Of a DNA stretch of 64,000 bases, positions 19,891 through 29,825 are shown in pieces. The first letter of the stretch is position 1. Each line of letters opens with the position of its first letter. The stretch comes from Escherichia phage ECP2303. The notes beneath the pieces are model-generated. The model had not been told where the DNA came from and made no database searches. It saw only the letters and a program-made list of their open reading frames with translations. Location of the stretch: sequence record PP261279.1. One strand, written 5' to 3'. Made by a program: the position numbers and the translations under genes.

Positions 19891-19996
19891 TTTTAAGGCT
19901 CCAGAAACGAAAAAACCCCGCAGCTATACAGCTAACGGGGCGGGTTAAAATTGAGTAACCTAAATAGATCGAAACTAACTAAAAGGAGACTAATAC

Positions 19997-20266
19997 TTAT
20001 CGAGGCACTCGGTGGATGATTCTGACAGTAACCGCATTCTCATTCATCAAGTAAGCATCCACATCTCTGTAAATATAAAACTTCTGCTCGCTATCAACAA
20101 CACAAGCTACTGCCCCTTCAGAGTTGTCTTCAAAGAAGACCACAACTGCATCGCAGCTTAGTTCATGATACGACTCTCGAAGATTTACAGCAAGAGGGTT
20201 GAAATCGTCACGAAGATCTAAAGTATGGGTTGGATTTACACGTTCTACAATTTTAAGTGTATACAT
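19997..20266 (-). CDS. hypothetical protein
   Basis: 89-aa ORF downstream of the tRNA cluster. Confidence 0.4.
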   Translation of the reverse strand: MYTLKIVERVNPTHTLDLRDDFNPLAVNLRESYHELSCDAVVVFFEDNSEGAVACVVDSEQKFYIYRDVDAYLMNENAVTVRIIHRVPR

Positions 20267-20312
20267 TTTAAAGGTTCCTTTTGTGTGTATATATTTAAAG
20301 TATAACTAAAGG

Positions 20313-20389
20313 TGGTCTCCACGGAGTGATTCGAACACTCGACCTCCTGATCCCAAATCAGGCGCTCTACCAAGCTGAGCTACGCGGAG
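20313..20389 (-). tRNA. tRNA-Pro (anticodon UGG)
   Basis: Hand-folded cloverleaf: T-loop TTCGAAT, anticodon loop UUUGGGA, CCA encoded. Confidence 0.7.
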
Positions 20390-20400
20390 TATTTATTATT

Positions 20401-20475
20401 TGGTGGCCCTGGGTGGAATTGAACCACCGTCTGGCGATTATGAGTCGCTTGCTTGAACCTTCCAGCTACAGGGCC
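20401..20475 (-). tRNA. tRNA-Met or Ile2 (anticodon CAU)
   Basis: Hand-folded cloverleaf: T-loop TTCAATT, anticodon loop CUCAUAA, CCA encoded. Confidence 0.65.
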
Positions 20476-20476
20476 A

Positions 20477-20552
20477 TGGTGCTGATGGCAGGACTTGAAC
20501 CTGCAACCTATTGATTACAAATCAATTGCACTGACAATTGTGCTACATCAGC
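20477..20552 (-). tRNA. tRNA-Thr (anticodon UGU)
   Basis: Hand-folded cloverleaf: T-loop TTCAAGT, anticodon stem AUUGA/UCAAU with loop UUUGUAA, CCA encoded. Confidence 0.65.
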
Positions 20553-20556
20553 AAAA

Positions 20557-20655
20557 GGTGCTAGGTGATGGAATCGAACCACCTATGTATTCAACGACTA
20601 CCTCGTCTATTTTCAGGATTAAAAATCCTCGCCCTTGCCAAAGGGCTTACCTAGC
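20557..20655 (-). tRNA. tRNA-like element, atypical (~99 nt; anticodon unassigned)
   Basis: Canonical acceptor stem (GCTAGGT/ACCTAGC), D arm and T arm (GGTGG-TTCGATT-CCATC), but two internal hairpins both have 5-nt loops, so there is no 7-nt anticodon loop. Confidence 0.4.
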
Positions 20656-20743
20656 GCAATATGTTGACCATGTGGCTAGTCGGCGATGACGACTGTAACA
20701 TTTGATAATCCGGTTCTGCTTCCGGCTTTCGCTTAATTACAAG

Positions 20744-20834
20744 GTCAACAATGTGGCGGAGAGTAATGGAATCGAACCATCATCGAGTTATCCTCAACGG
20801 GACGGTTTTCAAGACCGCTTGAGCACCATTGCTC
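20744..20834 (-). tRNA. tRNA-Ser (anticodon UGA)
   Basis: Class II tRNA with a long variable arm; anticodon loop CUUGAAA, T-loop TTCGATT, CCA encoded. Confidence 0.65.
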
Positions 20835-20958
20835 CCTACCCTCCTTTATAAATTACACTGATAATGACACTGATTTTCGAGCAGTTAGTGACTAGTATAA
20901 ACGACGATAAATATCAATGTCATTATCTGTATGATTTATGCATTTAAAAATATAAATT

Positions 20959-21045
20959 TGGTGGGGAGTGGTGGAGTCGAACCACCCGAGTCGCAATGAC
21001 AATAGATTTACAGTCTACACCGCTACCTCTACGGGATAACTCCCC
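20959..21045 (-). tRNA. tRNA-Tyr (anticodon GUA)
   Basis: Class II-like with a long variable arm; anticodon loop CUGUAAA, T-loop TTCGACT, CCA encoded. Confidence 0.6.
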
Positions 21046-21049
21046 AATT

Positions 21050-21124
21050 TGGCACCCCGTACTGGACTCGAACCAGTGTCAACGGCTTAGAAGGCCGCTG
21101 CTTTATCCACTAAGCTAACAGGGC
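21050..21124 (-). tRNA. tRNA-Arg (anticodon UCU)
   Basis: 75 nt; anticodon loop CUUCUAA, T-loop TTCGAGT, acceptor stem with two G-U pairs, CCA encoded. Confidence 0.6.
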
Positions 21125-21182
21125 ACTGGGTGGCTTTCTTTTACACCTGAGCCGCCAGAAAAGGTGGGAGACCATGTTTATA

Positions 21183-21211
21183 ATATTACACTGTTAGGCA
21201 AAGTTTGTCAA
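21183..21211 (-). promoter_or_regulatory. sigma70-like promoter upstream of the tRNA cluster
   Basis: Minus strand TTGACA-N17-TAATAT, about 60 nt upstream of the tRNA-Arg 5' end. Confidence 0.5.
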
Positions 21212-21220
21212 GAAAATATT

Positions 21221-21559
21221 TTAACTATTGCCAACAGGCTGTATTTCTGTGGTAAATGGCATAAAAGGTGCTGGTTTTTCAGCCTCTTCTACTACCACCT
21301 CTTCCTCTTCACCAAACATCTCATCATATTCTTCCTGCATTCGGTCTGCCTTATCAAGAACATACTCTGCAATGCTTTGACGAATATTTTGTTTGGTTTT
21401 CGGGTCCAACATCAGCTCTCTTAAAACTTTGTGAGCTTCTGGAACCATCGCTATAAAAGATTCCTTCATATCAAGGATGTTCTTCTCTAGCTGAATGGCG
21501 TTGGACTCCTCTTTCAGAGGTCTGCCTCTACGGCGACGCTTTTTAGTTGTATCCGCCAT
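21221..21559 (-). CDS. small basic protein, putative DNA-binding
   Basis: 112 aa from an internal ATG with GGAGGAAAC Shine-Dalgarno; N-terminal KKRRRRGRP patch; a TATCACGTGATA palindrome lies 12 nt upstream of the start. Confidence 0.5.
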   Translation of the reverse strand: MADTTKKRRRRGRPLKEESNAIQLEKNILDMKESFIAMVPEAHKVLRELMLDPKTKQNIRQSIAEYVLDKADRMQEEYDEMFGEEEEVVVEEAEKPAPFMPFTTEIQPVGNS

Positions 21560-21570
21560 GTTTCCTCCAT

Positions 21571-21599
21571 TATCACGTGATAGGTGGATTTTATCACGG
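21571..21599. promoter_or_regulatory. operator-like palindrome TATCACGTGATA plus a TATCACGG half-site
   Basis: Perfect 12-bp palindrome at 21571-21582 and TATCACGG at 21592-21599, in the 5' leader of the gene starting at 21559. Confidence 0.45.
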
Positions 21600-21904
21600 C
21601 AAATACTGATTGTCAAGTTCGCCGCAGGGTGGTATTCCCTGCGACTTGCCCAGCGTCCTGGACCAGCAAGACCCAACAAGTGGGTTACCAGATACCCATT
21701 ACCGCGCTCTGGCTCGACCTTATTACAGGTTGGCTGGGGTCACATCGTCATGTGCTGGCTGCCCCTACCATTTTAAGTGTGGTGCACTATCAAGCCCTCT
21801 AAGGGGAACTCAGACTTCTCCGAACCCTGTTTCAAAGCATCCGGAGATAAAGCCATCAAACTCATCTTTAAATTGGATATTCATCATGATACACGAAAAC
21901 AACC

Positions 21905-22147
21905 TCATTGTAAAGCACAAATAAATAAAACATACTTAATTTGTTTGTTATCGGGCTCAGGGTAGAAGTAGAAGATCTTGCTATCACCAATCTGCACACC
22001 ACCATCCCAACAACATAAACCATAACCCGTATTCATACAAGCTAAGTCGTTTGCAAAATCTATTGCATCATCTAGTGCACGAAATTCACCTTCATCTTCT
22101 AAATAATCCTCATTCATGGAACGGAAAACGAGCTTAACCTTAAACAT
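21905..22147 (-). CDS. hypothetical protein
   Basis: 80-aa acidic ORF. Confidence 0.4.
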   Translation of the reverse strand: MFKVKLVFRSMNEDYLEDEGEFRALDDAIDFANDLACMNTGYGLCCWDGGVQIGDSKIFYFYPEPDNKQIKYVLFICALQ

Positions 22148-22223
22148 AGCATTACCTGTAGACCTCGTAAGTTAAAATTGTATCACATCATATTGCAGAT
22201 CTTATCAGGTAACATTATTTTTG

Positions 22224-22412
22224 TCAACAGATTCCGGCCTTATCCCTCCTGTCTGCGTATTCTTTAATCGCAACCTCACCTGCATTGGTAACCAGATCTT
22301 CAAAGTAATTCTCAAGCTCCTCGTCAATGTCCGGTGACCAGCTCTTTTTCCTGTCAGTGTGAATTGCAGACTTGTTGAACTTATTACAATTCTTTGCTAC
22401 CGGATTGTTCAT
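22224..22412 (-). CDS. hypothetical protein
   Basis: 62-aa ORF co-oriented with neighbours. Confidence 0.3.
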   Translation of the reverse strand: MNNPVAKNCNKFNKSAIHTDRKKSWSPDIDEELENYFEDLVTNAGEVAIKEYADRRDKAGIC

Positions 22413-22422
22413 TAAGCTCTCC

Positions 22423-23001
22423 TCAACGTTCGTAGTAAATCTTATTCAACATTACCTCATCGTTTGCAGAAAGGATATCAAGATATGCATCACCAAATCT
22501 GCCTGCAACAACCTCTGCATGATACATCACTTCGTTAACATCGTCAAGAGTGATAACCGGATGACCATATCTTTCTGAATATTGTCTCAGTGTGCGATGT
22601 AACGAGTCGTCATCATATGCAGACTTTTTAATATCACAAACACGACGAATGGCCTTGATGTCGAAAAAACCTGTGCGATACCACCCAAGAAAAAAGTTCC
22701 GTGTAGTGTCAACATCTACATCAATACCATTAAGAACCTTATCTACAAGATAGCTGTCATCCTTTGGACTAGCGTCCTTAGTGCGAATGTAGTTGCCATC
22801 TTTTCCAGGTGATAGCTCCTTCTCATCACCAACTTGCATGCCATCATTTGGCGGTGTTAGCCACTTATCAGGATGCTTACGATCACGAGCGTTAGAATGA
22901 TTACGCTGGAAACCTGGCTTCCACTTGAAAGTTTTCTCCATCTGTTCTTCATTCTGATAACGTTTTGCAATCTTTTCACTGGCATCTTTGCGTGAACTCA
23001 T
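22423..23001 (-). CDS. hypothetical protein
   Basis: 192-aa ORF. Confidence 0.45.
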   Translation of the reverse strand: MSSRKDASEKIAKRYQNEEQMEKTFKWKPGFQRNHSNARDRKHPDKWLTPPNDGMQVGDEKELSPGKDGNYIRTKDASPKDDSYLVDKVLNGIDVDVDTTRNFFLGWYRTGFFDIKAIRRVCDIKKSAYDDDSLHRTLRQYSERYGHPVITLDDVNEVMYHAEVVAGRFGDAYLDILSANDEVMLNKIYYER

Positions 23002-23385
23002 AGCAGACTCCTCTTCAAGTTATAGAAAAACTCACTGTATCGCTTTGTAACGAGCTTTTCTATCAAACTGGTGCGATTGCCTTACTTGGTATAGTTTATA
23101 TAGCTGTGGAGCGATTTAGGGGCCTTCTTGTCAGTTTCCACACATAAACTTTATCCGAACTCGCGCGGGAGGCTCTCAACCGACTCCTTCCGGCGCTGGC
23201 AAGCTTTCGTCGGTGGTACACATTAGTGCTCGGCCTTTGGCCTGCGCTATCGCTTCGCTCCCACACATGTTAACAGTCCTGCATGTATGCACTTCTGTTA
23301 TTGTGTGCACTATGGAGGCCCGGCATCTCGCCCCTCGTAGGCGAGTGCCAATGAAGGGCCGACACTACCCATAATAAGTAATAAA

Positions 23386-23505
23386 TTTAAAACATGGTAC
23401 TTAGGATCTAGTATATTCTACATAAGTTAAGTATATGTACTTTAGTACCATAAGTACTAGATCTTTTATTTTTATTATTTAGTTATTTTAGTTATATTCT
23501 TTATG
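23386..23505. repeat. AT-rich region with dyad-symmetry elements (putative DNA-unwinding element)
   Basis: Inverted elements GATCTAGTA / TACTAGATC and CATGGTAC / GTACCAT, then a ~45-bp run of TTTTATT-type sequence. Confidence 0.5.
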
Positions 23506-23587
23506 TGTCCGTATCACGGACAGTTAGTGTCCGTATTACGGGCAGATGTGTCCGCGTGACGGACAGTAGTGTCCGTATCACGGACAG
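23506..23587. repeat. four tandem ~21-bp iterons, each an 18-bp palindrome TGTCCGTATCACGGACAG (two exact, two variant)
   Basis: Copies at 23506, 23528, 23549 and 23570 with 21-22 bp periodicity; each has arms TGTCCGT / ACGGACA around a 4-nt centre. Confidence 0.8.
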
Positions 23588-23661
23588 TTACTAACCTCTG
23601 TTCCAGAGTGAACATAAAACATACAAATCCTTATAGTACAGATGTTTAAGTTTTTACTGGT

Positions 23662-24012
23662 CTAACCAGTTGTTGACATTCGAATAACTTCTTCTGGTGG
23701 CAAAACTTTGTAAAATGTGCATCTTTTACCTCTCCCTTGTGTGGATATTTCAACCACTCCTGCACATTCTAAAGTTTTAACGCACGCTGCTGCTTTTGTT
23801 TTCTTTATCCCAACATCTGCTGCAATTTTCCTTGTGCTGGGTGTGAAGCGTGAATTTTCTCCAAGCTTATACCAGTTGTGCAGATAGCAGTATACGATCT
23901 TGTCATATAAGTCAAGAACAACAACCTCCCCAGTTGTGTCATTCAAAACTTTTGACATAGACAGTATTTCAAGGGGGACTTTAAGATATAGCAGCTTATC
24001 CCCATCTTTCAT
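23662..24012 (-). CDS. winged-helix DNA-binding protein (putative iteron-binding regulator or initiator)
   Basis: 116 aa with an HTH-like segment STRKIAADVGIKKTKAAACVKTLECAGVVE; its 3' end sits ~75 bp from the iteron array. Confidence 0.45.
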   Translation of the reverse strand: MKDGDKLLYLKVPLEILSMSKVLNDTTGEVVVLDLYDKIVYCYLHNWYKLGENSRFTPSTRKIAADVGIKKTKAAACVKTLECAGVVEISTQGRGKRCTFYKVLPPEEVIRMSTTG

Positions 24013-24059: not shown

Positions 24060-24614
24060 TTACTCCCCGCTGTCAATAGCAAGACTCATTGCAATACGGT
24101 ATGCCTCTTCTAATGGTAAGAGTCTCCCCCACACATCCCAACCGACATCAAACTGCCTGCCAAACAACTGCTGTGTGGTTCCGTGAGCATGACCGAACAG
24201 TTGGACTGATCCGTGAGGCTTTCTGTTCCACTTTGCAAACTGGTAATGGCTCATACAGATCAAATTCTTGTTGTGGCGAAGCTCGTAATAATCTACAACC
24301 TCATGACCGAACTCTTTCATAATTCTGACAGTCGTTCTTGTGTCATGGTTACCACGAACAAGAATAATATGTCCGTTCAACATATTTAGAACATCTGGAA
24401 GCAGTTTGTTGATATTCTTATCATTAGTGCACGCAATATCCCCCAAGTGAAACACAGTGTCTGCAGGTGACACAACAGAGTTCCACTTGGTGATGATTCC
24501 CGCATTCATACTGTCAAGATTGTGATCATACTGAGATCTGTGTTTTTGACATGAGTCGAACTCCATTACCCGCTGGTGGAGAAAGTGTGTGTCGCTTGTT
24601 ACAAAGTATTTCAT
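24060..24614 (-). CDS. calcineurin-like metallophosphoesterase
   Basis: Track ORF trimmed to the Met with a GAGGA Shine-Dalgarno; motifs SDTHF, GDIA, GNHD, GHAHG of the metallophosphatase superfamily. Confidence 0.7.
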   Translation of the reverse strand: MKYFVTSDTHFLHQRVMEFDSCQKHRSQYDHNLDSMNAGIITKWNSVVSPADTVFHLGDIACTNDKNINKLLPDVLNMLNGHIILVRGNHDTRTTVRIMKEFGHEVVDYYELRHNKNLICMSHYQFAKWNRKPHGSVQLFGHAHGTTQQLFGRQFDVGWDVWGRLLPLEEAYRIAMSLAIDSGE

Positions 24615-24621
24615 ACATTCC

Positions 24622-25032
24622 TCATTTAAGTTTAATGCAGTTTTTAAGCTGGCGTTCCATACGATCCACAACCCTGTCTGGAACATCATGAATGCTTTTA
24701 TTACCATGGCGGTTTTCAACCACGATCACGGTATAACTATATCCATGACTGATCGCCATGTCAATATATTCTTGCACATATTTTTCTTTTGTAAACGTAT
24801 TACTTACCACGATACGGTCGTAGCCCATACGCATCATATCTTCTACGTTATCTTTGCACCATTTTGCTGCAAGTGTTACTTTACTTGCATCCCAATTGTA
24901 ATTGCCGTCATCGTCGTACCAGAACATATCGTTCTCAAAATGTGGATACAGACCTTCTAAAGATAGCGCATTTGCCAGTGTTGATTTGCCAGACCCTGGT
25001 AGACCACGCACGATATATAGCATTTTAGACAT
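24622..25032 (-). CDS. P-loop polynucleotide-kinase-like protein
   Basis: 136 aa from the Met with a GGAGAG Shine-Dalgarno; Walker A GLPGSGKST and overall resemblance to the T4 Pnkp kinase domain (recalled from memory, not aligned). Confidence 0.6.
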   Translation of the reverse strand: MSKMLYIVRGLPGSGKSTLANALSLEGLYPHFENDMFWYDDDGNYNWDASKVTLAAKWCKDNVEDMMRMGYDRIVVSNTFTKEKYVQEYIDMAISHGYSYTVIVVENRHGNKSIHDVPDRVVDRMERQLKNCIKLK

Positions 25033-25060
25033 AGTAACTCTCCGTTTTAATTTTAATGAT

Positions 25061-25089
25061 AGTATACCTAACTGTTTTGTTAATTTCAA
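25061..25089 (-). promoter_or_regulatory. sigma70-like promoter for the kinase/phosphoesterase operon
   Basis: Minus strand TTGAAA-N17-TATACT about 25 nt upstream of the kinase start; divergent from the ligase promoter. Confidence 0.5.
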
Positions 25090-25092
25090 GTG

Positions 25093-25121
25093 TTGACACC
25101 AGGTTATTTGTGTGGCAGAAT
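25093..25121 (+). promoter_or_regulatory. sigma70-like promoter upstream of the RNA ligase gene
   Basis: TTGACA-N17-CAGAAT (weak -10) 30 nt upstream of the ligase start region. Confidence 0.4.
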
Positions 25122-25150
25122 AAAGGGACAAAATGACAAATGAGGAATGT

Positions 25151-26068
25151 ATGATGAAGTATTTTAATGCAGACGACCTGGTTGACAAAGGTCTTGTAAC
25201 CAGCAGATATTACCCAGATCTTGGATTAAAGATCTACAAATATGCCAGAAAAGTATTCTACAACAATTTATGGCATTTGTCTCCGCGTTTACTAGAGTGC
25301 CGAGGCATTGTTGTCGGTAATGAAGGAAATGTTGTGGCATGGCCCTTCACAAAAGTGTTTAATTTGGGAGAAAACTCCACCAACCTGCCTGACAATAAAC
25401 TTGTGACGGCGGTAGAGAAAAAGAACGGATTCCTTGGTGTGGTATCATCTCATAAAGGTGAACTATTGTTTTCAACAACCGGGTCTCTTGATTCTCCATA
25501 TTGTAACCTTGCAAAGGAAACCATCCAGGAGCAATGTGGTAATTTAGATCTCATCAAAAAGGTTATGGGCCATGAAAACATGACATTCATGTTTGAAATT
25601 TGTCACCCTTCAGATCCGCATATTGTTCAGGAAGACCATGGCGCATATTTGATAGGTTGCAGATATAACGATTCTGGAATAATGCTACCAGAAGCAGCTT
25701 TAGATGGGATTGCCAAATACCTTGGTGCAAAACGTCCTCACACTGTGCGTGAAATTCCGTTCAGCTATGCAAAAGAATTAGCTGCAGAAACAAGAGGTGA
25801 AGGGTATATGATTCGTAAGCCTTACTACCCTTATGATCTGCAGCTGAAGATCAAGTCTCCATACTATTTGGCACGGAAGGCCGTAATGAGGGGTAAAGCT
25901 TGGAAGATTTGGGATGATGATATCTTTAAACGTATTGACGAAGAGTTTTACGGCATGGTAAACTTCATTCGTAACAATTACACAGAAGATGTGTGGAACT
26001 GCCTCCTAGAGCAGGAACGCCGTGAGATACTTGACTGCTATTTCCACAACGAGGACTATATGCAATGA
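25151..26068 (+). CDS. RNA ligase, T4 Rnl1 (gp63)-like
   Basis: Blocks LECRGIVV, FNLGEN, EKKNGFL (KxxG nucleotidyltransferase lysine motif), FSTTGSL, FMFEICHP match T4 Rnl1 as recalled from memory; start taken at the ATG after GAGGAA (track start 25133 also possible). Confidence 0.75.
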   Translation: MMKYFNADDLVDKGLVTSRYYPDLGLKIYKYARKVFYNNLWHLSPRLLECRGIVVGNEGNVVAWPFTKVFNLGENSTNLPDNKLVTAVEKKNGFLGVVSSHKGELLFSTTGSLDSPYCNLAKETIQEQCGNLDLIKKVMGHENMTFMFEICHPSDPHIVQEDHGAYLIGCRYNDSGIMLPEAALDGIAKYLGAKRPHTVREIPFSYAKELAAETRGEGYMIRKPYYPYDLQLKIKSPYYLARKAVMRGKAWKIWDDDIFKRIDEEFYGMVNFIRNNYTEDVWNCLLEQERREILDCYFHNEDYMQ

Positions 26069-26415
26069 AGAAGTTGATTGTGTGGCTGGATGACTTGAGA
26101 GATCCGTCAAATTATGGGCTCCCAGATGCTCTTTGGCTAAAGAATTCCTCTGAGTTTATGGATTTTATTAACGATAAGGGAAAGCTCTACAGGCGCGTTT
26201 CTGAGTGGCACATGGACAACGACCTTGGAGAGGTATTTGAAGGGTACGATTGCCTATCTATGCTGGAGGAAAAATTTGTATTTGGTAAGCCTCCTGTAGT
26301 TGACAACGTGAAGATTTTCGTGCATACTTCTAACCCATCAGCTGCTCGTAAATTCATGCTTGCTGCTGACTCGTTTAAAAAGTTTGGAATAGAGATTAAA
26401 CAAAACATCTACTGA
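26065..26415 (+). CDS. hypothetical protein co-transcribed with the RNA ligase
   Basis: 116 aa, start overlaps the ligase stop (ATGA). Confidence 0.5.
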   Translation: MKKLIVWLDDLRDPSNYGLPDALWLKNSSEFMDFINDKGKLYRRVSEWHMDNDLGEVFEGYDCLSMLEEKFVFGKPPVVDNVKIFVHTSNPSAARKFMLAADSFKKFGIEIKQNIY

Positions 26416-26423
26416 GGACACTT

Positions 26424-27185
26424 ATGCGACGACTGATCATTATCTCCGGTGCTGGTTTGAGCGCTGAATCTGGTATCCCAACTTTCCGATCTGGTGGCAC
26501 TGCAATGTGGGAGAATTTCAGCATCGATGAGGTGTGTAACATCCACACCTTTGCCAAGAACTACTATAAGGTTCATGACTTTTACAATGCACGGCGTGTA
26601 GCTCTTGGCAGTGTTGATCCTAACCTTGCACATCTCCGGATCGCTGAGTGGTATTCCCGCTGGTCTGGTCGTGTGATCAACCTGACCACCAATGTAGATG
26701 ATTTGCTGGAGCGTGCTGGTGTAAAACATGAAGATATTTTACATGTCCACGGATATTTGCCAGAAATAGTCTACAAGGATGATGAAGGGAGTAACGTCAT
26801 TAAAGACATTGGATACTCTGAGGTAGATGCAAGCAAGTATACTTGGGTTAAGCCTAATGTAGTGTTCTTCGGAGAAGTAGCTCCAAAGTATACAGACATG
26901 TATGACCTGTTGACTTCTCTGACGAGCAATGATATGGTTATCCTTGTAGGGTGCTCCAACACAGTTATCAATTTTAACTGGGAGCTATTCCCTGCCTGTA
27001 ATAAGGGGACCAAACTGCTGATCGTTAACAAATACGACTCACAGCATTTAGGGGAGAATGGCATTTCACGTAGTGACATTTACCAGTATGAGGATCGCGG
27101 CATCCCAGTTTGGTTTAACGGGGCTGTTGACGCTTTCTCTGATAAAACATTCATTGACATCGTAGAAAACTTTATGGAACTGTAA
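26424..27185 (+). CDS. Sir2-family NAD+-dependent protein (deacylase or ADP-ribosyltransferase-like), no Zn ribbon
   Basis: GAGLSAESGIPTFRS, TTNVDDL, HVHG, FFGE and ILVGCS sirtuin motifs are present; no Cys cluster between HG and FGE. Confidence 0.75.
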   Translation: MRRLIIISGAGLSAESGIPTFRSGGTAMWENFSIDEVCNIHTFAKNYYKVHDFYNARRVALGSVDPNLAHLRIAEWYSRWSGRVINLTTNVDDLLERAGVKHEDILHVHGYLPEIVYKDDEGSNVIKDIGYSEVDASKYTWVKPNVVFFGEVAPKYTDMYDLLTSLTSNDMVILVGCSNTVINFNWELFPACNKGTKLLIVNKYDSQHLGENGISRSDIYQYEDRGIPVWFNGAVDAFSDKTFIDIVENFMEL

Positions 27186-27199
27186 GCGGAGGCCTTTTA

Positions 27200-27913
27200 A
27201 TGCTGAATACTAAACTGATTGACAACTTGGAAAAACTGTCTCAGCCTGAAAACTACCTTTGGTCTGCCAACTGGGTGGAAAATTGGAACCGTGTAGCAGC
27301 TAAAGTGAAAAAATCATACACACCATTCGAACTTCAGCTGAGTTTCATTGAGGAAGAGTTCAATGAAGTTTTGGAAGAGTTGGAGAAAGGTGATGGTGGG
27401 GATCATCTCCTAAAAGAGGCCTGCGATCTTCACGTTGTCACAAGTTATGCCGCTTATCTTGTTAACGATAACCATGAAAAGTGGTCAAACCTGTTTGATA
27501 ATCCGCGAGGTCTTAAGTTTAAGATCGGTGAATTTTATGATACATTGATCGCTGCGAAAAATACCTCTAAGCAAAGAGCGTCTGCTTACCGCTTAGCAGA
27601 GTTGTCAACAGCTTTGCTGTTCCAGCTTCGCGGTGATGTGTGCGGGATGATGCGGAAGGTTCTAAAATCTAATGACAGCAAGTTTGCACGCGTCAACCAT
27701 CTGCGGTATTCACACGGTGCCAGTGCAGATATGCCTGCTGAACAACTTATCGAGTTGGAGATTAAAGATCTTGAGCGACGCTTTGATGGTCGCTATGAAG
27801 GTTTTGTTGCTAAAGAAGAATTCTACAACGGAAATAAAGTTATCATATTCCTCGACAGTAAAGGTAAGATTATGAAGCCTTCAAGCTTCAAGGATGTAAC
27901 AGAATATATTTAA
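27200..27913 (+). CDS. MazG-like nucleotide pyrophosphohydrolase domain protein (putative)
   Basis: N-terminal EEEFNEVLEELEKGD...LLKEACDL resembles the MazG EExxE...ExxD metal-binding pattern; 237 aa. Confidence 0.45.
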   Translation: MLNTKLIDNLEKLSQPENYLWSANWVENWNRVAAKVKKSYTPFELQLSFIEEEFNEVLEELEKGDGGDHLLKEACDLHVVTSYAAYLVNDNHEKWSNLFDNPRGLKFKIGEFYDTLIAAKNTSKQRASAYRLAELSTALLFQLRGDVCGMMRKVLKSNDSKFARVNHLRYSHGASADMPAEQLIELEIKDLERRFDGRYEGFVAKEEFYNGNKVIIFLDSKGKIMKPSSFKDVTEYI

Positions 27914-27919
27914 TAACAT

Positions 27920-27945
27920 AGCCGGGGCGATCCCGGCTTTACTTG
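27920..27945 (+). terminator. intrinsic terminator
   Basis: AGCCGGG-GCGAT-CCCGGCT hairpin followed by a T-rich tract. Confidence 0.6.
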
Positions 27946-27977
27946 TTTAGGAAAGTATGCAAGTGAGGTAGAAAGTT

Positions 27978-28286
27978 ATGTACAAGCACTCCAGAGATCT
28001 TGAAAACGATGCTGTGTTTGGGGATCAGATGAAAGAATTGGTTAAACTTATAGGTAGGATAGAGGATAAGTTTGACACTAAGATCTACATCGACAGCAAA
28101 GTATTCAACCACAAAATATGGACAAATCTGTGTGTTGGACTGCATGGAGATAAAGATGTGGTAAATTTAGTTGTAATTAAGTTCATAGTGTGGCAGAATA
28201 AAACTATAAATTATTACGATCCGCACCTGCTTGTTTACCCGATAAAAGACCTATTAGAGAAGGAGGACTGCAATGCCGTTATTTAA
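27978..28286 (+). CDS. hypothetical protein
   Basis: 102-aa ORF with a GTGAGG Shine-Dalgarno. Confidence 0.5.
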   Translation: MYKHSRDLENDAVFGDQMKELVKLIGRIEDKFDTKIYIDSKVFNHKIWTNLCVGLHGDKDVVNLVVIKFIVWQNKTINYYDPHLLVYPIKDLLEKEDCNAVI

Positions 28287-28542
28287 TCTTGCTAAACCTG
28301 TAGAAGCACACCAGTTTGACGGAAGCTCTTCATCAGTATCTGATCTGCAACGGTGGATTGATACAGGTGTGTTTACACCGTCACCTGTTCGGACCAGAGA
28401 TATTCTTCGCATGTGTGAGCTTGTGGAGCCGTTTGGTAACCTGGTCTTGTACCAAGGGGATTGGTTAGTTGACTTTATGGGAGACTGGTTGGTAATGAGC
28501 AAAGAAGAGATGTTTAAAATTTTTAAGGAAGAGGCTGAGTAA
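28273..28542 (+). CDS. hypothetical protein
   Basis: 89-aa ORF with AAGGAGGA Shine-Dalgarno. Confidence 0.5.
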   Translation: MPLFNLAKPVEAHQFDGSSSSVSDLQRWIDTGVFTPSPVRTRDILRMCELVEPFGNLVLYQGDWLVDFMGDWLVMSKEEMFKIFKEEAE

Positions 28543-29825
28543 TGCATCAGATCAAAACAACACTGTACGCACTGAACAAAGATGGCAGCTACCAACAGTG
28601 GAAAGTATTCACGGATGGTGATAAGGTTATTGTAGAGTTTGGCAAGCTTGATGGTAAACTGCAATACAAAGAGACGATCTGCACACCTAAGAACGTGGGT
28701 CGTGCCAATGAAACTACAGCTGAGCAACAGGCTGAGCTGGAAGCGATCAGTAAGTGGGAAAAACAAGTCCGTCTGGGGTATGTTGAAAATATGGAAGATT
28801 GCGAGCAGGGTGTTGACCTTTTACCCATGCTGGTGCATGACTACCTGAAGCGTGGAAAGGCACTTAAATTACCTTGCTGGATCTTGCGTAAGTTAGATGG
28901 CCTTCGTCTACTGGTTGTTTTCCAAAACGGTGAGCCTAAATTTATTTCCCGTGGTAATAAGTCCTACCCTATTCAAGGAAAGCTTCTGGAGCAACTTCGT
29001 TCTTTCCACTTCACCACCGGGATTAAACAGCTCGACGGAGAGATCTATATTCATGGTCTGCCTCTGCAGAAAATAGTGTCTCTTGCTAAACGTTGGCGCA
29101 CACAGGAAGAGATTCAGGCCGAGATCGATAAAGACTACGAGGCAGATAAAAAACGCCGTCATGCCGCAATTAAGGCAGGCTTATCAACATACAAAAACTT
29201 CAATAAGGTAGATATTCCTGTTGATGTTGAGCCTGTTCGTGATGATTTGCGTTACGGAGGGTACTGTAGCTATGACTTAGAGTATCATATTTTCGACATT
29301 CCTAGTGACAAGGTATGGTGGGATCCTGAAACAGAATCTGGACGATGCAAGGATCTTATGGATGCAGAAGATACCATTACCACCCTGATGCTTGACCATA
29401 TCAAGGTTGTTGACGCAGAGCTTGCGTACACAGTTGATCATTGCGAAGAATCTGTTGGTGTATTCATGTCCGAAGGATATGAAGGTACTATCATGCGTAA
29501 CTTCTGTGGTAAATATGAATATGGTCAGCGAACATCTGAAGCATTGAAATGGAAAAAGTTCAACGATGCTGAGGTGAAAGTTATTGACGTTGAGAAAGAT
29601 AAGAATGATGAAGGTGTTCTTATCTGCGTTGACAAGGAAGGTATAGTTGTTAAAATGAAGATGAAAGGCACGCACGAGGAGCGTAGCTATGACAGGATGC
29701 AGGAAATGATCGGCAAGTTTGTCACCTTCAAATATCAAGCAAGGACAGAAGACAACAACTACCAATTCCCTGTCGGCATCTGCGTCCGAAATGTTAACCC
29801 GGACACTTGGGAGGTTCTGGAATGA
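28542..29825 (+). CDS. ATP-dependent DNA ligase (putative)
   Basis: 427 aa with a KxDG adenylation motif (LRKLDGLR) and an EGTIMR-type motif. Confidence 0.65.
   Translation: MHQIKTTLYALNKDGSYQQWKVFTDGDKVIVEFGKLDGKLQYKETICTPKNVGRANETTAEQQAELEAISKWEKQVRLGYVENMEDCEQGVDLLPMLVHDYLKRGKALKLPCWILRKLDGLRLLVVFQNGEPKFISRGNKSYPIQGKLLEQLRSFHFTTGIKQLDGEIYIHGLPLQKIVSLAKRWRTQEEIQAEIDKDYEADKKRRHAAIKAGLSTYKNFNKVDIPVDVEPVRDDLRYGGYCSYDLEYHIFDIPSDKVWWDPETESGRCKDLMDAEDTITTLMLDHIKVVDAELAYTVDHCEESVGVFMSEGYEGTIMRNFCGKYEYGQRTSEALKWKKFNDAEVKVIDVEKDKNDEGVLICVDKEGIVVKMKMKGTHEERSYDRMQEMIGKFVTFKYQARTEDNNYQFPVGICVRNVNPDTWEVLE

Follow-up and report, generated by a model that had tools for sequence, protein, structure and literature searches.

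What might a phage sirtuin that has shed its zinc-binding cysteines do with NAD+ in the midst of genes for RNA repair? The question is raised by a locus in the window, i.e. the whole 64 kb stretch of DNA analyzed here, which is the last 64 kb of the record of a phage of the genus Vequintavirus (rV5 genus) that infects E. coli. A reading of the letters alone had led to the prediction of a Sir2-family gene at 26424-27185, which would be co-transcribed with an RNA ligase gene and followed by a MazG-like gene at 27200-27913. Both the Sir2 gene (253 aa; labeled "Sir2-like protein" in GenBank) and the MazG-like gene (237 aa) are present as described. The features that bear on the question are as follows.

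20313-21124, minus strand: tRNA cluster (Pro, Met, Thr, an atypical 99-nt tRNA, Ser, Tyr, Arg; ARAGORN and Rfam tRNA matches)
24060-24614, minus strand: calcineurin-like metallophosphoesterase (Pfam Metallophos_2 and Metallophos, E ~4e-6; PHROG 547 'phosphoesterase', E 5e-52; annotated 'phosphoesterase')
24622-25032, minus strand: small P-loop kinase, AAA_33 / polynucleotide-kinase-like (Pfam AAA_33, E 1e-9; PHROG 2071, E 9e-59; PHROG 505 'polynucleotide kinase', E 9e-10)
25093-25121, plus strand: sigma-70-like promoter candidate (TTGACA-17-CAGAAT with an upstream TG, 10/12 matches; consensus match only)
25154-26068, plus strand: T4 Rnl1-family RNA ligase (Pfam RNA_lig_T4_1, E 8e-15, whole profile; PHROG 562, E 2e-66)
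26065-26415, plus strand: cREC, cyclic-phosphate processing receiver-like domain, 116 aa (Pfam cREC_REC PF20274, E 4.5e-14)
26424-27185, plus strand: sirtuin with a class III-like SIR2 domain that lacks the Zn-ligand cysteines (Pfam SIR2 PF02146; PHROG 2162 'Sir2')
27200-27913, plus strand: all-alpha NTP-pyrophosphohydrolase-like protein (MazG/HisE/dimeric dUTPase superfamily) with an uncharacterised C-terminal extension (PHROG 671 'nucleotide pyrophosphohydrolase', E 5e-22)
27920-27938, plus strand: GC-rich hairpin, then a T-rich tract (RNA fold -16.4 kcal/mol, z -2.5)
28542-29825, plus strand: ATP-dependent DNA ligase (Pfam DNA_ligase_A_M and OB)

The locus and its counterparts in other phages

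The cREC gene between the ligase and the sirtuin, as well as the kinase/phosphoesterase pair, were absent from the original prediction. The P-loop kinase and the metallophosphoesterase are transcribed divergently from the Rnl1-cREC-Sir2-MazG genes, which form a tight same-strand unit: the stop codon of the ligase gene overlaps the start codon of the cREC gene (ATGA), and the remaining gaps are 8 and 14 nt. The promoter candidate lies in the divergent intergenic region ahead of this unit, and the hairpin past the MazG-like stop codon is, judging from its sequence, likely to be the intrinsic terminator that ends it. From this geometry, we infer that the four genes are co-transcribed, as had been proposed for the sirtuin and the RNA ligase.

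In the translation of the ligase gene (for which an alternative ATG lies upstream, at 25133), stretches resembling the ligase motifs KxNG, EGYMIRK and LKIK can be recognized by eye. The kinase, with its start taken from the GenBank annotation, contains the Walker A motif GLPGSGKST and is a candidate RNA 5'-OH kinase; the metallophosphoesterase is a candidate for RNA 3'-end healing or phosphate removal. In the cREC family alignment, D51, D53, H87-T88-S89-N90-P91 and K96 are invariant, with D9 and D10 nearly so. The MazG-like assignment holds at the level of the family but not for the window protein taken by itself: apart from the PHROG 671 match, PRA-PH matches all 17 family members (best E 4.8e-6) and MazG 15 of the 17, whereas the window protein scores 13.7 bits with PRA-PH against a Pfam cut-off of 21.3. 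The acidic motifs EEEFNE and KEACD are conserved in this family, and the structural model is helical, with dimeric dUTPases as the best, albeit weak, Foldseek matches (E ~1). A sequence search of the PDB yielded no matches for the MazG-like protein or the RNA ligase, and chance-level matches only for cREC. As to the flanks, the DNA ligase is a conserved neighbor whose functional part in the cassette is uncertain, and the tRNA cluster, ~3 kb from the cassette and absent from the annotation of the GenBank record, is given for context only, phage tRNAs being plausible clients of tRNA repair.

The sirtuin, RNA ligase, cREC, kinase, MazG-like and phosphoesterase genes all lie inside 24060-27913. 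This set is identical to the sirtuin neighborhood type 2 of Iyer et al. 2022, the prototypes of which are Escherichia phage V5 and Proteus phage Mydo (PMC9503650, section 3.7.3), and includes the T4-like RNA ligase, the nucleotide kinase, the MazG-superfamily pyrophosphatase and the calcineurin-like phosphoesterase of that neighborhood; there is no substantive difference, and the window locus is a member of this type. In Mydo-like phages (~146 kb), the same genes occur in another order, namely phosphoesterase, Rnl1, cREC, kinase, Sir2, DNA ligase and MazG, with the DNA ligase immediately 3' of Sir2. At 28 T5-like loci, an HAD_SAK_2 'Swiss-army-knife' RNA-repair phosphatase is encoded ~1 kb downstream of Sir2. 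Both contexts (V5/Mydo and T5-like) were described by Iyer et al. 2022, together with a third one, in jumbo phages, that includes 2H, Nudix, cREC and PIN (PMC9503650). The metallophosphoesterase accompanies the cassette in Mydo-like as well as phi92-like phages; the latter have a cREC-phosphoesterase-Rnl1-kinase-ligase-MazG cassette, with the DNA ligase within it, but without Sir2, which is found ~32 kb off. At ~20 of the 63 Sir2 loci, no cassette partner was detected, and the cases of linkage come largely from related phage lineages and so are not fully independent. The profiles used recognized no repair partners at the distant cREC loci (L080-L083), and Pfam and PHROGs gave no informative family for the Sir2 neighbors in one phi92-like phage (L002) or for the 118-aa ORF beside Sir2 in Erwinia phage KEY. 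The gene itself is widespread: it has its own PHROG and is annotated in >100 GenBank phage records.

Active site and zinc module of the phage sirtuin

The Pfam SIR2 profile (PF02146) matches ORF 26424-27185 over positions 1-178 of 180, with E 9.8e-27 and 94.5 bits (cut-off 24), and PHROG 2162 'Sir2' matches it with E 8e-109. Every NAD+-binding and catalytic sirtuin signature that had been reported for this protein was found, in alignment with E. coli CobB. Specifically, residues 9-22 are GAGLSAESGIPTFR; residues 88-92 are TTNVD, with N90 and D92 invariant in the family and T where Q is usual; the catalytic histidine is H109, followed by G110; and further on come F149-G150-E151 (FGE) and VGCS at 175-178. 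Among 41 diverse homologues, G9-A10-G11, S16, G17, F21, R22, N90, D92, H109, G110, F149, E151, G176 and S178 are invariant. The AlphaFold model (pLDDT 89.8) has the sirtuin fold, and the catalytic His and Asn are retained, so that the original prediction is refuted on neither count. Judged from its sequence, ORF 26424-27185 is a real CobB-like sirtuin gene with an intact NAD+-cleaving active site. The possibility of a pseudogene or a degraded sirtuin is ruled out by the clade-wide invariance of the catalytic residues.

Canonical sirtuins typically carry a Cys4 zinc site, yet membership in the superfamily does not require one. The phage protein has no such site: its cysteines are C38, C177 and C192, with none in residues 111-142, the Cys4 zone of sirtuins, and none in the spacer between the catalytic His and FGE. 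The same holds across the clade, with 0-1 Cys in the spacer of 30-49 aa in each of the 113 close homologues (out of 120) that could be parsed. However, the small module itself is still there. AlphaFold places strands at 110-118, 124-128 and 142-146, with pLDDT ~95 over residues 111-140, and the spacer is nearly equal in length to that of Zn-bearing relatives. With high confidence, the model indicates a module that was kept as a predicted beta-sheet, with its ligands replaced and its second knuckle shortened, and not deleted; what had been claimed about the zinc ribbon is borne out for the ligand cysteines but not for the module that normally holds them. The loss of the zinc site in phage Sir2/CobB was already reported by Skliros et al. 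2016 (PMC5107563), and no mention of Zn-ligand loss was found in the main text of Iyer et al. 2022 (PMC9503650). The clade is acidic (median pI 5.1, net charge ~-12), at least 80% K/R conservation is seen at 10 of the 253 positions of the sirtuin, and no extra nucleic-acid-binding patch is evident from the conserved K/R positions.

Candidate reactions

To what end, then, would NAD+ be cleaved? The suggestion made at the outset, of an enzyme that either manipulates the pool of NAD+ or nucleotides or modifies some target, is too unspecific for a test, and the gene context appears to point more specifically to the healing and sealing of RNA ends. We propose, with a probability of roughly 40%, that the sirtuin is an active, NAD+-cleaving member of a phage heal-and-seal cassette for RNA (probably tRNA) and acts in a KptA/Tpt1-like manner; NAD+-dependent removal of RNA 2'-phosphates of the KptA/Tpt1 type was predicted for phage sirtuins by Iyer et al. 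2022 (PMC9503650). As for the substrate, chemistry and order of steps, we infer the following pathway. The cyclic phosphate would be opened by cREC and/or the metallophosphoesterase, the 5'-OH would be phosphorylated by the P-loop kinase, the break would be sealed by the Rnl1-type ligase, and the leftover 2'-phosphate, either terminal or at the junction, would be moved to NAD+ by the sirtuin, a putative non-homologous analogue of KptA/Tpt1. In particular, a phosphate oxygen would attack C1'' of NAD+, with departure of nicotinamide, and His109 would activate the ribose 2''-OH for attack on phosphorus; the NAD+-derived product could then be degraded by cREC, the MazG-like pyrophosphatase and the phosphoesterase. 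That the sirtuin acts directly on RNA, and not on protein lysines, and so brings a second, non-homologous form of Tpt1/KptA chemistry to phage tRNA repair, is a tentative proposal to which we give somewhat less than an even chance. A speculative variant is that the sirtuin strips acyl groups from RNA-linked substrates, e.g. the N-acetyl-aminoacyl-tRNA produced by GNAT toxins.

The RNA-repair reading is supported by the invariant active site, the confident model of the sirtuin fold, the tight, flanked gene unit and the recurrence of the cassette, as well as by the invariant Y54/R57 pair (see below), the nearby tRNA cluster and a Macro domain encoded in the genome. It is further supported by the status of 2'-phosphate transfer by Tpt1/KptA, the only NAD+-consuming step of RNA repair described as established in PMC6097658 and PMC6573784. 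Several observations weaken it: the acidity of the clade and its few conserved basic positions; the location of Sir2 outside the phi92-like cassette, the partnerless loci and the relatedness of the lineages; the sufficiency of the kinase, the metallophosphoesterase and Rnl1, which alone would complete a T4 Pnkp/Rnl1-type pathway with no need for a 2'-phosphate step; and the likeness of the protein to bona fide lysine deacylases, with the substrate-tunnel motifs kept. Our literature search turned up no experiment on any phage sirtuin of this clade.

The last of these observations underlies the main rival explanation. The nearest solved relatives by sequence are CobB, SIRT5 and Sir2Af1, and CobB ranks top in a Foldseek search with the sirtuin model (E ~2e-18). 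The phage protein shares with these class III sirtuins the fold, the NAD+ motifs, the catalytic His, the VVxFGE tunnel motif (here VVFFGE) and the FYNARR/YxxR anion-binding motif; F53-Y54-N55-A56-R57-R58 is the same as FYNARR of CobB, and Y54 and R57, the class III YxxR pair, a motif to which acidic acyl groups bind in that class, are invariant in the family. By both sequence and predicted structure, it appears closest to the class III deacylase sirtuins and not to the defense-type SIR2 NADases. Hence, the protein might be a CobB/SIRT5-like NAD+-dependent lysine deacylase (deacetylase/desuccinylase) of host or phage proteins, possibly of cassette or translation enzymes, with the O-acyl-ADP-ribose cleared by the MazG-like enzyme, cREC and the Macro domain; the same argument was made by Skliros et al. 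2016 for the zinc-less KVP40-type phage Sir2 (PMC5107563). We consider this explanation unlikely, although it is the strongest competitor. Apart from the missing Zn-ligand cysteines, TQNID is replaced by TTNVD, GTS by GCS and VYPAA by VINFNW, such that the peptide-staple motif GTS-x-x-VYPAA has become GCSNTVINFNW; the phage clade has its own C-terminal region of ~50 residues; and the scores fall far short of the cut-offs of the NCBIfam CobB/deacylase equivalog models (121.1 vs 243 bits for NF001753, 102.4 vs 320 for NF040867). Besides, a deacylase would leave unexplained the recurring linkage to RNA end processing in three phage lineages (PMC9503650).

Clearly less probable is that the sirtuin ADP-ribosylates a macromolecule, be it RNA, at its ends in the manner of some Tpt1 enzymes, or a host protein, and that this mark is the end product, serving to protect the repaired RNA or to hijack the host factor. 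In the view of Iyer et al., viral sirtuins are at base ADP-ribosyl-transferring enzymes (PMC9503650), and the Macro domain of the phage could reverse such a mark; however, the Macro gene is ~84 kb off in the record, unlike in SirTM systems, where the two genes form a tightly linked pair, the sirtuin is far nearer to deacylases than to SirTM, and no target suggests itself.

The analogy that had been drawn with 'minimal' defense SIR2 domains is not supported, given the comparison with CobB, SIRT5 and Sir2Af1, the top Foldseek rank of CobB and the invariance of YxxR. The defense-type proteins (ThsA, DSR2, SIR2-HerA/Nezha, Avs5/AVAST5) belong to the same superfamily and likewise have no Cys4 zinc site, but their structures rank well under the deacylases in the structure comparison; none of the PADLOC defense SIR2 models matches the sirtuin, the sole marginal PADLOC match being PDC-S65 (34 residues, E 0.011); and the sirtuin is a standalone protein of 253 aa among RNA-repair neighbors, with no sensor or partner of the SLOG, HerA, Ago or STAND kind fused to it or encoded next to it. 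It is therefore very improbable that the enzyme is a free NADase or reshapes the NAD+ pool for host shutdown or for disrupting NAD+-based defense signaling, the direction in which the original prediction leaned, even though defense SIR2 domains are NADases, a nucleotide pyrophosphatase-like gene adjoins the sirtuin gene and the KVP40 homologue was first described as an NAD+ hydrolase, as cited in PMC5107563: the NAD+ salvage genes that would shield the phage from its own NADase are not annotated in the record, and an NAD+-dependent step of the phage's own cassette would starve. A SirTM-type toxin is ruled out by the lack of an adjacent, operonic or fused Macro gene, and a role in NAD+ reconstitution by the lack of an annotated Nampt, Nmnat or similar gene in the record.

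Relation to known systems

The literature already describes the sirtuin gene, the loss of the zinc site and the set of genes around it (Iyer et al. 2022; Skliros et al. 2016). The remaining value lies in the biochemistry of the predicted activity and not in the detection of the gene; a demonstration would be new enzymology, although the idea is in print (Iyer et al. 2022). If the KptA-like activity of the sirtuin is real, sirtuin chemistry would widen from acyl-lysine to nucleic-acid phosphates, and phages would possess a complete yeast-style pathway, with a cyclic phosphodiesterase, kinase, ligase and 2'-phosphate removal. Such a pathway would undo the cleavage of tRNA by host anticodon nucleases, which matters both for the host range of phages and for their resistance to defense systems that target RNA.

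Among phage sirtuins, a close parallel is the zinc-less Sir2/CobB of KVP40-like Vibrio phages, whose small 'finger' domain likewise has no zinc ligand site, although both the lysine tunnel and the catalytic His are preserved (PMC5107563). It belongs, however, to another phage lineage, is accompanied by NAD+ salvage genes and not by an RNA-repair cassette, and has FNE/INP in the tunnel motif, in place of FGE/VINF here. KptA/Tpt1, in turn, is described as occurring beside cyclic-phosphate-processing enzymes (PMC6097658; PMC9503650), much as the sirtuin does. Still, KptA/Tpt1 is of the ART superfamily, whereas the phage protein is an acidic, Rossmann-type sirtuin with a predicted activity; it does not have the ART-superfamily fold (PF01885) and would be a functional analogue at most, not a member. 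As a whole, the cassette resembles the T4 Pnkp/Rnl1 and yeast Trl1/Tpt1 pathways in combining a kinase, a phosphoesterase for 3'-end healing and an Rnl1-family ligase, and the candidate cyclic phosphodiesterase and the putative NAD+-dependent step mirror the yeast route. Unlike in T4 and yeast repair, the phage activities are split over six small genes, and the healing enzymes have different folds (cREC, calcineurin-like).

Gene map and transcription unit

Escherichia phage ECP2309 (PP464953.1, Vequintavirus, rV5 group) matches the stretch 25133-29825 at 100% identity, and by coordinates the window corresponds to the final 64 kb of this entry; 120 other phage records are 90-99% identical over 25133-29825. 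Over the same stretch, 18 "Campylobacter phage" records (host Campylobacter jejuni in 16) show at least 90% identity to E. coli Vequintavirus, and their Campylobacter host assignment is surprising. The gene under study (Sir2, 253 aa) already bears the GenBank label 'Sir2-like protein'. The original prediction named its ligase and MazG-like neighbours but overlooked cREC and the divergent kinase/phosphoesterase pair.

Genes of the RNA-repair cassette and its downstream flank
24060-24614, minus: calcineurin-like phosphoesterase
24622-25032, minus: small P-loop kinase, polynucleotide-kinase-like
25154-26068, plus: T4 Rnl1-family RNA ligase
26065-26415, plus: cREC, 'cyclic-phosphate processing receiver domain' (PF20274)
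26424-27185, plus: SIR2
27200-27913, plus: MazG/HisE-like protein
27978-28286, plus: small unknown ORF, 102 aa (PHROG 7684)
28273-28542, plus: small unknown ORF, 89 aa (PHROG 14585)
28542-29825, plus: ATP-dependent DNA ligase

The two small ORFs accompany the repair cassette in Mydo-like phages despite the shuffled gene order there, and may be further components of it.

The RNA ligase stop overlaps the cREC start (ATGA), the cREC-Sir2 and Sir2-MazG gaps are 8 and 14 nt, with ribosome-binding sites GAGGA and GGAGG, a promoter-like site (TTGACA-17-CAGAAT) is found at 25093-25121, and the sole strong hairpin (27920-27938; -16.4 kcal/mol, z -2.5) lies directly 3' of the MazG-like stop. These features make the claimed co-transcription with the RNA ligase, here of ligase, cREC, Sir2 and MazG-like genes, plausible, although we infer it from gene layout only. 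In cREC, the acidic pocket of the receiver type is kept, with D51, D53, the HTSNP motif and K96 invariant and D9 and D10 nearly so. The label 'MazG-like' is acceptable at the superfamily level: the protein matches PHROG 671 'nucleotide pyrophosphohydrolase' (E 5e-22), its homologues match PRA-PH (17/17, best E 4.8e-6) and MazG (15/17), and the acidic motifs EEEFNE and KEACD are conserved in the family. The window's own protein, however, stays under the Pfam thresholds and has no match in a PDB sequence search; it is predicted to fold into a helical bundle, extended at the C-terminus by a beta-hairpin, and its best fold matches are dimeric dUTPases, at a weak E of about 1.

A cluster of seven tRNA genes, absent from the GenBank annotation, lies at 20313-21124 (minus strand), about 3 kb from the cassette: Pro-TGG, Met-CAT, Thr-TGT, one atypical, Ser-TGA, Tyr-GTA and Arg-TCT. 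The tRNA-like gene at 20557-20655 (minus, 99 nt), with an odd four-base 'atcc' anticodon in ARAGORN, matches the Rfam tRNA model end to end at 35.5 bits, against a gathering score of 29, so that an insertion of about 26 nt (an intron or a long extra arm) is implied. Since the ORF 23662-24012 (minus) matches PHROG 12838 'replication initiation protein' (E 2e-78) and the helix-turn-helix families HTH_36/DUF6945, its annotation as 'DsrC like protein' is probably wrong. No gene is annotated in the adjoining 660 bp or so (23002-23661), which contain short ORFs only and lie near the switch of strand and GC skew at about 25 kb; scanning 19900-23700 with Rfam gave no match inside them.

A sirtuin with a lost zinc site

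The Sir2 ORF matches Pfam SIR2 (E 9.8e-27, near-complete profile coverage) and PHROG 2162 (E 8e-109). In a 41-sequence family alignment, G9-A10-G11, S16, G17, F21, R22, N90, D92, H109-G110, F149, E151, G176 and S178 are invariant, and the NAD+-binding and catalytic residues line up one to one with those of E. coli CobB. The only cysteines are C38, C177 and C192, none of them between the catalytic His and FGE, and 113 parsable close homologues have 0-1 Cys each in this spacer. Hence the initial observation, of a sirtuin that keeps its NAD+-binding and catalytic signatures, including the catalytic His and Asn, and is missing the zinc-site cysteines, is confirmed.

As judged from the AlphaFold model (pLDDT 89.8), the small module is not deleted, with strands at 110-118, 124-128 and 142-146 and a confidence of about 95 over residues 111-140. 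Within the top 150 representatives found in a library of 1.8 billion proteins, the closest relatives show 0 Cys; others, a little further off, retain CxxC...CxxC with a nearly equal spacer length and a common (D/E)IGY motif, and intermediates with 1-3 Cys occur. Y117 stands at the position of the first Cys in Zn-bearing relatives, whose second knuckle is a few residues longer. The Zn-less forms are also altered elsewhere, namely TQN(I/V)D to TTNVD and GTS to GCS. Modest additions of this analysis are the stepwise loss of the zinc site inside a compact-ribbon lineage that retained the module, and the co-occurrence of this loss with the TQNID to TTNVD and GTS to GCS changes.

Association with the cassette in other phages

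The ORFs of 63 viral loci with Sir2 relatives were searched using the window's proteins. An rV5-like locus (L005) has the window's layout; Mydo-like phages of about 146 kb (7 loci, one being a 4.8-kb fragment) have the same gene set on a single strand in a different order (phosphoesterase, Rnl1, cREC, kinase, Sir2, DNA ligase, MazG); and 4 further loci share the gene set, with cREC undetected in 3. At 28 T5-like loci, a HAD_SAK_2 phosphatase gene lies about 1 kb downstream of Sir2; in Erwinia phage KEY, it adjoins Sir2 immediately upstream. The remaining loci, about 20 and mostly from phi92-like phages of about 150 kb, carry Sir2 without any of these partners.

A cREC-based search recovered phi92-like phages with a cREC-phosphoesterase-(Rnl1-kinase)-DNA ligase-MazG cassette from which Sir2 is absent. 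Pairing of cREC and Sir2 loci (L075/L035, L077/L038, L078/L037, L079/L036) places Sir2 on the same contig, about 32 kb away where coordinates were compared (the first two pairs), among ORFs without recognisable family. This separation is another modest addition of this analysis; together with the partnerless loci, it means that the Sir2-cassette association is recurrent, not obligatory. Linkage to the cassette is closer for the MazG-like gene than for Sir2.

Candidate activities and comparison with known sirtuins

Sir2 belongs to a known, already described clade of phage sirtuins for which a functional hypothesis is in print. Iyer et al. 2022 (PMC9503650), who described the present neighbourhood with phage V5 as its prototype, and also HAD-type and jumbo-phage-type contexts, proposed that these sirtuins remove RNA 2'-phosphates in a KptA-like manner, with neighbours that either make the 2'-phosphate or degrade ADPr>P; their main text was not found to mention the zinc loss. 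Skliros et al. (Front Microbiol 2016, PMC5107563) reported Sir2/CobB proteins of phiSt2, phiGrn1 and KVP40 without the zinc ligand site, named T5 and Klebsiella phage JD001 among other carriers, and favoured a deacetylase role. We found no experimental characterisation of the clade in the literature; the remaining interest of Sir2 is modest and rests on its enzymology.

We tentatively adopt the RNA-repair reading, at a probability of roughly 40%. Sir2 would remove a 2'-phosphate at the expense of NAD+: an oxygen of the substrate would attack C1'' of NAD+ and displace nicotinamide, and the 2''-OH, activated by His, would then attack the adduct, a chemistry that would map well onto the established sirtuin mechanism. 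In favour of RNA repair are the tRNA genes nearby, the invariant YxxR pair, which could serve as an anion holder, and a Macro domain gene of the same phage (PP464953.1 15070-15528, L085, outside the window; Pfam E 1.3e-7), the product of which could process ADP-ribose-1''-phosphate or O-acyl-ADP-ribose formed downstream of Sir2. PP464953.1 has no annotated gene for NAD+ salvage. Against RNA repair, the clade is acidic (median pI 5.1); kinase, phosphoesterase and Rnl1 already make up a full pathway of the T4 type; the Sir2 gene of phi92-like phages is not linked to the cassette; and the protein looks most like a lysine deacylase.

The main rival is a CobB-like deacylase, which we consider rather unlikely. 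Sequence and structure agree on the kind of sirtuin: among solved structures, CobB, SIRT5 and Sir2Af1/Af2 come closest in sequence, and Foldseek places CobB first (E about 2e-18, TM 0.73-0.85). Figures for the model-based ranking, again a modest addition, run from Sir2Af1 (22.1), PfSir2A (20.2) and Hst2, SIRT2, SIRT1 and SIRT4 (about 18) through SirTM (15.4) and SIRT6 (14.5) to the defence proteins PsSIR2 (14.1), Nezha Sir2 (12.4), ThsA (12.0) and AVAST5 (9.9). An ADP-ribosyltransferase appears improbable, and a free NADase more so.

The original interpretation is right in part, in that the RNA-repair operon includes an enzyme that uses NAD+, but its likening to 'minimal' defence SIR2 NADases is not supported: sirtuins are nearer to the model than defence structures, the PADLOC defence SIR2 profiles gave no match, and the class III hallmark FYNARR (YxxR), invariant across the clade, is the same in CobB. 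Unlike CobB itself, Sir2 reaches NCBIfam scores of about half of the cut-offs or less, and has VINFNW instead of the class III VYPAA staple motif, which rules it out as a CobB equivalog.
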